This document shows positions 53,664 to 55,483 of a stretch of 64,000 bases of DNA, piece after piece. This DNA comes from Escherichia coli (GTDB lineage Bacteria; Pseudomonadota; Gammaproteobacteria; Enterobacterales; Enterobacteriaceae), in the NCBI RefSeq assembly GCF_041248615.1, contig NZ_CP158426.1; one strand, written 5' to 3'. Below the pieces are notes generated by a model. The model had not been told where the DNA came from, did not search any database, and saw nothing but the letters and a program-made list of their open reading frames with translations. Position 1 is the stretch's first letter; each line of letters starts with the position of its first letter. The translations under genes and the position numbers were made by a program.

Positions 53664-55483
53664 GGGCAAATCCACTGTATGAGACATAATTAACCAGAAC
53701 CAGAATGCTGCAATTTCATTTTTTCTGATCCATTCAGGTATGTGATTATCTGCCAGATTATTATCATTCAATAAATGCTCAGTTGTTTTATTTTTCCAGT
53801 CATATCTATTCACGTTATAACCGCCTTTATATTGTTTCATCTGATTACGCCTCAATCGTTTTCTTTTCTGGTGATTTTCACCATCACATGTCAGTTGTAT
53901 ATGCAAGGGGATCAATAAAAATATCACCCTGCAAGCACTTCAAAGCTGATTATGGGGATATTCTAGAACTATTCACAAAACTATTCCAGACATATCAAGA
54001 ACTATTTCTTGACCTATTCATAATAAAATAAAACATGCTATCAACTACGGCTCATATTCTCCTTGGGGGTGTCGTTGTACTGTTCGACTGTTCTTGTGGT
54101 CAGATTAACAATCTGAAGAGTAAAAGCGACAGTAATCTGTCTGTTATAGTGGCGATAAAAACACTGAATGCGCATCCTGTATGTGAAATCCTGTCATGTA
54201 GAGCAGTAAGCAATGACAGACATGCATGTTATATGTGAAGGGGGCCGGGAGACGACATAATCAGTATGGCTGTCATTCTGGTTGTAAAACGCGATCACTT
54301 TCCGGGGGTAAAAGATGATATGGAGGTTGACAAACGGTTTGCTTCGGATTGTCTTTTCTGGGGCCTGAAATACGAGGGCAGAAAAATAATTCCAGAGTAA
54401 ATCTGCTCTGTTTTTAGGACAGAAAACTCCATGCTGGCTGTAAAAGTGAAAAATTAACACCCAGTATGTATGGAAGTCTGAAGATGTTGAGAATGTCGGT
54501 ATGATACTATATACACATATTTTACTAAGTATTTTTACTAAGCATTTCAGTAAGTGTTATACACGTATTTTCATAAACACTTCTACAATTGTTTTCGTTA
54601 AGCATTGCTATACACATCCAGTTTAGTAAATCTTTACGTTAACTAAATCAGTTTAATGCTGCTGTAAAACCTTTCTGCTTCAGCAATCAATCTGCTATTC
54701 GATTTTACTGATGTTACGTTTAACCTTTCCTAAGATTTCGAGTTTCGACGTTAGCATGAGAAAAGTATCTTTACGCTAAATCAACCCGAACTTTCCTGAA
54801 GTAATCTGACGTTTTTTTCGATGTGCTTACGACGATTCTGTTAAACGACTTTCTGGATGTTTTGATAACAATCAGATTGAGGCATTAACGATTCCTGACG
54901 TTTTCTTTTCCGTGTAAGGTCATTCTTTTTGTCATGAGGTTTCTTCTTGCATTGCGAAAGTGTGATGAACGGTTTTGGTGTTTTTGATTCAGATAAGGTT
55001 TACGTTATCGATGGTTAATCGTTTTTATGGTGCGTAGTGAAACGTAACTTTTTCAGGATGAGAAAATCGATTCTGATGTTGGTGATTTTTGTTCTTGTGG
55101 CGGGGTTTATCTGTAAACAGGTTTTAAACGTGTCATTCACATCCGTGATTGAGTTGTGTGATTAAGCTGTAGGTTTTGGGGTTGTTGTTGATTTGCATTA
55201 CCAGGAAGCGTTCTGGTTGCGTTTCTGGTGTTTTGTTCGAATGTTCTGTGGATCCTTTTCCCTTCTGACTTTTCTCGTTGTCCATGTCGTTTTTAAATCC
55301 ATTCGCTGTTCTTGAGTGTTTTTACCCTGCGTGTAGAATTATCTTTTCGTTCCGGGATGGTTTGTTCCGTTTCAATCACTCTTAATCAGAGAGTTGTAGC
55401 ATTGCTCAATGCCGGATGCCGTAAAGTTTTACCGCGGTGATTAATGATGTGAAGTCAATCCAAATCAACGGAGATCTCTCATC

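Follow-up and report, generated by a model that had tools for sequence, protein, structure and literature searches.

A putative promoter with a conserved upstream site in the gene-free gap before the Rep-like gene of CP4-like islands in Escherichia coli

Introduction

Why does a genomic island keep a long AT-rich stretch of DNA without genes directly upstream of a gene for a Rep-like nuclease? The question is raised by a 64-kb stretch of Escherichia coli DNA (contig NZ_CP158426.1), here called the window; coordinates refer to this window, and L-numbers denote loci retrieved for comparison. The window is a decayed CP4-like E. coli genomic island and is 100% identical to NZ_LT599825 and NZ_CP033635. 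Its gene-free gap comprises 1,643 bp (53841-55483), from the ATG at 53840 of a minus-strand gene for a protein of 262 aa to the ATG at 55484 of the gene for Gp2, a YagK/YfjJ-type protein resembling Gp2 of inoviruses. A first description, made from the letters alone and here called the sequence-only reading, had marked the slightly smaller interval 53928-55483 as a possible origin or iteron region, a noncoding RNA locus or a promoter region silenced by H-NS. We propose, with a probability of roughly 55%, that the gap is an operator and promoter followed by a weakly constrained leader of ~970 nt with lineage-specific repeats, together serving an operon of Gp2 and AlpA; the proposal is built on sequence comparison. 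A literature search on the gap and on the function of this Gp2 subfamily found nothing. As far as the searchable literature shows, the gap is undescribed, and it is an element of a familiar kind.

A conserved upstream site and a putative promoter

Of 5,426 complete E. coli genomes, 1,877 contained the core of the gap (54379-55483, ~1.1 kb); it was counted at 3,310 places in total, with up to 8 copies per genome. Strain UTI89 is one of the carriers, with its gap at NC_007946.1 4,886,886-4,888,367 in reverse orientation. A full-length Gp2 allele was found in 1,873 genomes, and in every locus inspected (about 20) the core lay directly upstream of Gp2. In Providencia, Brenneria and metagenomic Enterobacterales, genes for proteins 40-50% identical to Gp2 have the same layout around them: a GTPase/DUF932/antirestriction module on the minus strand, a gap of 450-1,360 bp, then Gp2 and AlpA on the plus strand. 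The gaps of these other genera had no similarity to the E. coli core in BLAST comparisons. Although the rest of the gap cannot be aligned across genera, two elements persist, and their order and spacing are fixed (Table 1).

The upstream element, motif 1, has the consensus ATAAYTCCAGAST. In five lineages chosen by protein similarity alone it occurred as a single copy per gap, without mismatch and on the Gp2 strand (shuffle P <=0.0005 each). It was present in all E. coli variants and in the Providencia, Brenneria and metagenomic relatives, did not occur again in more than 250 kb of retrieved loci, and is one of only three invariant runs of at least 15 nt in the E. coli alignment. Motif 2 reads GATTGGTAATATA outside E. 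coli (TGG plus TAATAT; exact in L026, L029 and L031) and TGATACTAT, TGGTACTAT or TGGTATTAT in the E. coli variants, whose consensus is ATGTCGG(T/G/A)A(T/A)TG(A/G)TA(C/T)TAT; for the extended -10, other lineages read TGGTAATAT, TGGTACTAT or TGGTATTAT. The TG, A(-11) and T(-7) are retained across lineages, in agreement with the sequence of an extended -10 promoter, TGnTAnTAT. The two motifs are 80-85 nt apart outside E. coli and 104-105 nt apart in E. coli, about two helical turns more. The right arm and the T-run of a small hairpin (54393-54415) make up this surplus of ~22 bp. E. coli has genes inserted upstream of the gap that the other genera lack, thus an insulating terminator is plausible at this place in E. 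coli. A scan of metagenomes for the bipartite pattern of motifs 1 and 2 yielded 20 matches, four of them followed on the same strand by a Gp2-like open reading frame (ORF; E about 1e-83 to 1e-86); the other 16 are close to chance expectation, itself a rough estimate from the collection size with no measured control.

These observations support the promoter among the options of the sequence-only reading and narrow it to 54386-54510, with an extended -10 and an upstream site that are kept across genera. The gap would regulate the operon for the HUH Rep-like Gp2 and AlpA in cis and provide its long untranslated leader, and it would abut the divergently oriented control region of an accessory gene on the minus strand. 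The 13-mer of motif 1 is a putative operator, recognised by a conserved regulator that would come from the island or from the host. RNA polymerase would start at ~54517, in the first copy of a TATACAC repeat, and in E. coli the transcript would pass an AT-rich and T-rich leader of ~970 nt before reaching Gp2. The short repeats of this leader are probably protein-binding sites, and nearer to Gp2 a second, weak promoter (55312-55339) and a near-invariant proximal leader of 65 nt may follow. In E. coli, the hairpin and T-run beside the 13-mer likely shield the promoter from transcription of the inserted upstream genes. The whole gap is a likely H-NS target because of its low G+C content.

The arrangement resembles extended -10 (TGn) sigma-70 promoters with a distal operator: the diagnostic bases are kept, no -35 element is recognisable, and the conserved site is located integral helical turns upstream in both spacing classes. 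Unlike in these promoters, the gap leader is unusually long (170-1,090 nt). Several points weigh against a promoter of this kind. The call is based on sequence and conservation only, and a -35 element is not evident for the extended -10 at 54502-54510. A generic sigma-70 scan ranked the hexamer 54505-54510 low since the scan required a -35, and the gap as a whole has 2 promoter-like sites versus 5.7 in shuffled sequence. The ~970-nt leader of E. coli shows no enrichment of terminators and far exceeds the 170-330 nt of the leaders in Providencia, Brenneria, L029 and L031. Motifs 1 and 2 could also serve the HUH protein, as origin or nick site, instead of or besides transcription.

Absence of a protein-coding gene

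The description of the stretch as AT-rich and devoid of convincing genes proved correct. The G+C content is 38.3% in the gap and 33-42% over 53600-55400, versus 50-56% in the flanking genes; this A+T-rich composition fits silencing by H-NS. The Prokaryotic Genome Annotation Pipeline (PGAP) places no annotation in the gap in nearly all genomes, no ORF is shared by nine diverged E. coli copies, and a six-frame Pfam scan of the gap gave no match. Many indels among the E. coli copies are not multiples of three. A conserved protein-coding gene, the finding named beforehand as fatal to the sequence-only reading, did not appear in the nine-copy comparison or in the Pfam scan, and a hidden gene is ruled out. 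Four candidates were rejected individually. A minus-strand ORF of 82 aa, sometimes called by PGAP, has a frameshift or stop in most variants including the window. A hydrophobic ORF of 35-42 aa at 55037-55165, a look-alike of type I toxins, loses start codon and frame in most variants. ORFs of 67 and 44 aa in the block 54030-54378 are not conserved as proteins; frameshifts occur in L014 and L019, and L014 has 10 nonsynonymous versus 0 synonymous changes. The gap is no remnant of a 176-aa cassette gene known from other variants, for which tblastn gave no match in the window.

Short repeats behind the putative start site

Motif counts were compared with 1,000 dinucleotide shuffles. TATACAC occurs three times (54510, 54558 and 54609; 0.05 expected) and TTTTACTAAG twice in tandem (54520 and 54533; ~0 expected), both far above the shuffles; Tandem Repeats Finder also detected the 12-13-nt period of the latter. 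The further claim of many ACGTT copies did not exceed chance: six copies versus 2.3 expected give a single-test p~0.02, in an unbiased k-mer scan ACGTT was not above the null top-scoring k-mer, and no dispersed enrichment of ACGTT, GTTAA or TTACG surpassed that level. The copy number in the array 54510-54640 varies from 1 to 6 among variants, even between near-identical Gp2 alleles (92-97% identical). Each TATACAC unit is one mismatch away from the DnaA box TTATNCACA. Three such boxes within 160 bp correspond to p~0.017, and L008 and L014 have six, one of them perfect; the units are situated in the most AT-rich 150 bp of the gap. Phased A/T tracts or curvature were not detected in the gap, with no period above the shuffle maximum.

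The repeats of the leader are lineage-specific, TATACAC and TTTTACTAAG in E. coli and three copies of TATGTGTTT in Providencia. The leader of L048, a metagenomic Gp2 relative, has the 9-nt unit GCAGGTTAA six times in tandem (~2730-2790), and its sister lineages L041 and L050 have one copy; the L048 array is a further case of variable repeats in an initially transcribed region. L030 contains a perfect 15-bp inverted repeat, TATGTGTATATGTAC-CTCTAA-GTACATATACACATA, followed by TATTATTTTCTAAG (~3850-3895), and it is built from ATATACACAT and TTTTnCTAAG units, the same units as in the direct-repeat array of E. coli.

Alternative functions of the gap

An HUH protein must have a DNA target, and the gap may be the cis-acting origin of Gp2, with one conserved motif as nick or recognition site, the TATACAC/TTTTACTAAG array as iterons or unwinding element, and an excised island that replicates as a rolling circle or is mobilised. 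We regard this origin as doubtful, and its more specific form as unlikely, in which the gap is the replication or mobilisation origin of CP4-like islands, Gp2 nicks at ATAAYTCCAGAST or GATTGGTAATATA, and the AT-rich repeats are binding or unwinding sites. The adjacent initiator expected at a rolling-circle origin is present: the HUH (HYHVILLL) and YxxK (YLVK) motifs of Gp2 are intact, weak matches to replication initiators were obtained in PHROGs, and the linkage of Gp2 to the gap is near-perfect. Short motifs kept across a protein family of ~40% identity are the pattern expected of a Rep nick site, direct repeats lie beside the most AT-rich segment with its DnaA-box-like units, and Ff phages likewise have a large noncoding block immediately before gene II. 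However, no conserved hairpin that would present either motif was found, the hairpins around the motifs are in different registers from lineage to lineage, and single-strand folding revealed no excess structure. A hairpin at 55366-55382, whose base changes looked compensatory, was rejected as a nick site; only two haplotypes of it exist, and L015, L017 and L021 lack it or have it in broken form. The repeats vary in number between closely related Gp2 alleles and are not kept between genera, and motif 2 matches an extended -10 promoter exactly. Many E. coli alleles of Gp2 are frameshifted forms of 214 aa without the tyrosine motif, and a rough count gave a ratio of nonsynonymous to synonymous substitution rates (dN/dS) of ~0.5. 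In plasmid and phage collections related DNA was confined to four E. coli plasmid records, with no phage among them. Rep proteins commonly autoregulate at their origins, therefore origin and promoter could coexist in the gap.

Known origins show where the likeness ends. In Ff filamentous phages, the terminator, the packaging signal and both origins are gathered in the intergenic region immediately before gene II. The gap likewise is a large noncoding block abutting a gene related to gpII (REP_ORF2-G2P), with a terminator-like hairpin first and an AT-rich segment; unlike the Ff region it belongs to a chromosomal island, not a phage, and lacks a series of strong hairpins (z about -1). The best match in the gap to the Ff nick sequence was 11/19 and to dif 13/22, both at or below the shuffle means. 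An intergenic region of the inovirus type was rejected, with no Ff nick, no dif/XerCD site, no excess structure and no matching phage record. Double-strand origins of HUH Rep proteins combine a nick hairpin with three 11-bp direct repeats in pMV158, and parvoviruses such as AAV have Rep-binding repeats. The gap also has an HUH Rep-like protein near short tandem repeats (the 12-13-nt TTTTACTAAG and TATACAC), but no conserved nick hairpin was found, and the repeats are ~900 bp away from the gene, copy-variable and lineage-specific. A theta-type iteron origin was considered for the repeats and the three DnaA boxes with one mismatch in 74% A+T, but rejected, since the copies range from 1 to 6 and the initiator is of the HUH type, not a winged-helix RepA.

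A separate unstructured RNA of ~700 nt, rich in U and G, could run from ~54517 to the terminator-like hairpin at 55204-55226 and act in cis or in trans, e.g., with the ProQ/FinO protein of the island, while Gp2 would be transcribed from a promoter of its own at 55312-55339. We consider this improbable. Its start promoter is conserved, the best terminator-like hairpin of the leader (-11.8 kcal/mol) precedes the second promoter-like site and is separated from the ATG by ~255 nt, and a ProQ/FinO-family gene is encoded 2.7 kb downstream. Of the noncoding RNA locus offered by the sequence-only reading, a structured form was not supported. The Rfam scan it had proposed, run over 50000-64000, found no RNA family in the gap and a chance match to PhotoRC-I inside the Gp2 gene; three long folds had z-scores of -0.92, -0.45 and -1.40 with both strands unremarkable, a sliding fold scan was flat except at the terminator hairpin, and an alifold consensus contained compensatory changes in 19 of 271 pairs with a covariation term of -10 of -128 kcal/mol. 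An unstructured leader or RNA starting at ~54517 is possible. Against a separate RNA, the terminator segment is swapped for a gene cassette in roughly 500 genomes, the leaders of other genera have 170-330 nt and no terminator, and the ProQ/FinO gene is frameshifted in the window. The opposite extreme, quite improbable in our view, is that most of the gap is AT-rich filler without function, a decayed or mosaic spacer that is kept by hitch-hiking and silenced by H-NS, and that only the last ~170 bp, with the promoter-like site and the proximal leader, matter. The nine diverged E. coli copies of the core are 78-92% identical, while the fourfold degenerate sites of the adjacent Gp2 gene reach 83-98% in these pairs, and 92-98% in most of them. 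About 38% of the ungapped core columns vary among the nine copies, indels are many, the gap is a modular mosaic with insertion sequence (IS) and cassette insertions, and the window island itself is heavily decayed. Only the last ~84 nt are as conserved as the Gp2 gene. A pure spacer is contradicted by the persistence of both motifs and their spacing across genera, by the left 620 bp of the core, kept in essentially all 3,310 places, and by three invariant runs of at least 15 nt where 0.27 were expected (P=0.001). The gap as a whole diverges faster than its neighbour's fourfold sites; apart from a few fixed spots, most of it is a mosaic under weak constraint.

The promoter and leader, our preferred interpretation, invite a comparison with AlpA-dependent antitermination. 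At the P. aeruginosa promoter PalpB the AlpA-binding element (ABE), GGGACG-N5-GGTA, is located between -35 and -10, and a -10-like pause element is needed (PMC7969949, PMC9371919). PalpB and lambda PR' combine a site for loading an antiterminator with a leader that contains a terminator (PMC7969949, PMC9371919). As there, the putative gap promoter is followed by -10-like sequences (TATACAC) in the initially transcribed region, and the operon includes a gene named AlpA; some E. coli variants contain GTCG-N5-GGTA, which is similar to the ABE. However, the AlpA of P. aeruginosa is 21Q-like, has at least 142 aa and contacts DNA with residues up to H142 (PMC9371919), whereas the AlpA of the island is a 78-aa helix-turn-helix protein of PF05930, and the leaders of the gaps are not enriched in terminators. 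Homology was rejected because the two proteins differ in size and architecture and share the name only; the likeness to antitermination is only a lead.

Features along the gap

Table 1 Features of the gap and the adjacent Gp2 gene, in window coordinates
Feature	Position	Strand	Description
5' region of the 262-aa gene	53841-53961	-	promoter-like TTGTGA-N18-CATAAT at 53978-53949
(A)ACTATTC direct repeats	53962-54031		four copies, 11-12-bp period
Accessory block	54030-54378	+	97-98% identical in class A/B variants despite diverged flanks
Motif 1	54386-54398	+	ATAATTCCAGAGT (consensus ATAAYTCCAGAST), 13 nt
Hairpin with T5	54393-54415		CAGAGTA-AATC-TGCTCTG, 7-bp; intrinsic-terminator-like, weaker on the minus strand
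Motif 2	54493-54510	+	ATGTCGGTATGATACTAT; putative extended -10, TG 54502-54503, hexamer TACTAT 54505-54510; predicted start ~54517
Repeat array	54510-54640	+	three TATACAC interleaved with TTTTACTAAG-type 12-13-mers; 74% A+T; predicted initially transcribed region
T-rich leader part	54641-54998	+	all E. coli variants; mean pairwise identity 81-87%; indels not multiples of three
G+T-rich middle module	54999-55295	+	T 43%, A 17%
Terminator-like hairpin, T-rich tail	55204-55226	+	-11.8 kcal/mol, best in leader; ~255 nt before the Gp2 ATG
Second promoter-like site	55312-55339	+	TTGAGT-N16-TAGAAT; best sigma-70 score in the gap
Proximal leader	55419-55483	+	near-invariant; palindrome, then TTAATGATGTGAAG, then TCAACGGAGA (Shine-Dalgarno)
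Gp2/YagK-YfjJ gene	55484-56215	+	243 aa; HUH-fold Rep-like nuclease by motifs and fold

The left 450 bp (53928-54378) follow particular upstream gene modules and are missing from other variants. The (A)ACTATTC array, with four tidy 11-bp copies in L008, is confined to variants carrying the 262-aa minus-strand gene and is probably an operator of that gene module. The accessory block is 88% identical in class C and absent from class D. Across lineages the leaders have 172-1,091 nt; their presence is conserved, their sequence is not. T-richness is a property of the E. coli and Providencia leaders only, and each leader has 0-2 terminator-like hairpins, not above shuffles. In roughly 500 genomes 54999-55295 is exchanged for a cassette of ~1.2 kb with the minus-strand gene for 176 aa. 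This cassette allele (L003 6781-7311, L005 6731-7261, and L016) replaces ~300 bp, and its protein, annotated by PGAP as a DNA-binding protein in one genome, had no match in Pfam, NCBIfam, PHROGs or PADLOC.

The sigma-70 score of the second promoter-like site is no better than the top match in shuffled sequence, and the site is partly conserved as TTGnGT followed by TAGGTT or CAGGAT. The palindrome of the proximal leader is imperfect in the window (55419-55434, CCGTAAAGTTTTACCG) and perfect in L015 and L017 (CGGTAAA-GT-TTTACCG). A second copy of a 63-nt leader element (55421-55488) precedes the next gene, the first Gp2 paralogue, at 56355-56417.

Gp2 and the surrounding island

Gp2 is an HUH-fold, Rep-like nuclease with Pfam matches to YagK_YfjJ_C (2.9e-36) and REP_ORF2-G2P (3.4e-10), and the motifs IRVDLRFP, KHYHVILLLN (HUH) and RASYLVKYETK (catalytic tyrosine Y213 in YLVK); the weak matches to PHROGs replication initiators lie around the HUH motif. 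Three inovirus Gp2-like genes had been described here from the sequence. The first passes the Pfam test, the next two (56572-57144 and 57650-58198) have only weak similarity (blastp E~0.06-0.1). They are degenerate Gp2 paralogues; 56572-57144 keeps an HUH-like EYHVVLCV, which 57650-58198 has lost. The E. coli subfamily has a low-complexity insertion of ~40 aa (residues ~153-189; predicted local distance difference test (pLDDT) <50), and the relatives in other genera have 189-207 aa without this insertion. A protein scan of one genome per species gave only two loci, thus the window Gp2 subfamily is essentially restricted to E. coli. The island AlpA protein contains the HTH_17 domain. Just past the Gp2-AlpA cluster, a gene for a ProQ/FinO-family RNA chaperone (58216-58724, minus strand) is frameshifted here and in L020; if intact elsewhere, it would point to a cognate RNA somewhere in these islands.

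To the left of the gap the minus strand encodes CbtA/YeeU, DUF987, RadC, an antirestriction protein, DUF932, DUF905 and a GTPase. Between the GTPase and the gap lie a plus-strand gene for 317 aa and the minus-strand gene for 262 aa, both unknown. An IS3-family element (52390-53676) splits the 262-aa gene in the window (51716-52381 and 53634-53840), and the gene is intact in other genomes, e.g., in L002 (9373-10161); the ORF 53634-53927 of the sequence-only reading is the 5' remnant of this gene with a spurious upstream extension. The slot between GTPase and gap holds different unknown genes by variant (317 plus 262 aa, 407 aa or 339 aa; window 50766-51719 plus strand, L003 4395-5618 plus strand, L009 750-1769 minus strand), which had no match in Pfam, NCBIfam, PHROGs or PADLOC, and it resembles a variable cargo or defence hotspot. 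Models of defence systems gave no match to the flanking unknown genes. In one genome a neighbouring gene is labelled as RepB family; this label was discarded, with an NCBIfam score of 22.7 versus a cut-off of 87 and no such label for the window homologue. The genes that follow Gp2 in the variants are those for a TIR protein, a restriction endonuclease or GmrSD, or ireA. The right-hand cargo of the window includes a YadA-like trimeric autotransporter adhesin and a small helix-turn-helix protein resembling sigma-70 region 4 (61200-62801 and 62863-63318), flanked by several decayed IS elements.

The islands CP4-57 (alpA, yfjI, yfjJ) and CP4-6 (yagK) of E. coli K-12 share with the window the families GTPase, DUF932, antirestriction, RadC, CbtA/YeeU, AlpA and YagK/YfjJ. 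In contrast, YfjJ and YagK are ~30% identical to the window protein, and their upstream gaps are 150-270 bp long. E. coli K-12 has no copy of the gap or of its motifs; yagJ is merely equal in length.

Conclusions

Among the genes of CP4-like islands are those for adhesins, toxin-antitoxin modules, defence and virulence. The family described here is present in about one third of the complete E. coli genomes, often in several copies. With respect to the gap a false lead is removed: its 1.6 kb conceal no gene and no large structured RNA, and for the most part they evolve under almost no constraint. Were the gap an origin, common islands held to be cryptic could, once excised with the help of AlpA, replicate or be transferred as rolling circles, and the gene order to the left, with antirestriction, DUF932 and RadC, would resemble the leading region of a plasmid. 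The putative promoter and its upstream site, kept from E. coli to Providencia and Brenneria, would offer a handle of ~125 bp on the switch of the Rep-like-AlpA operon.

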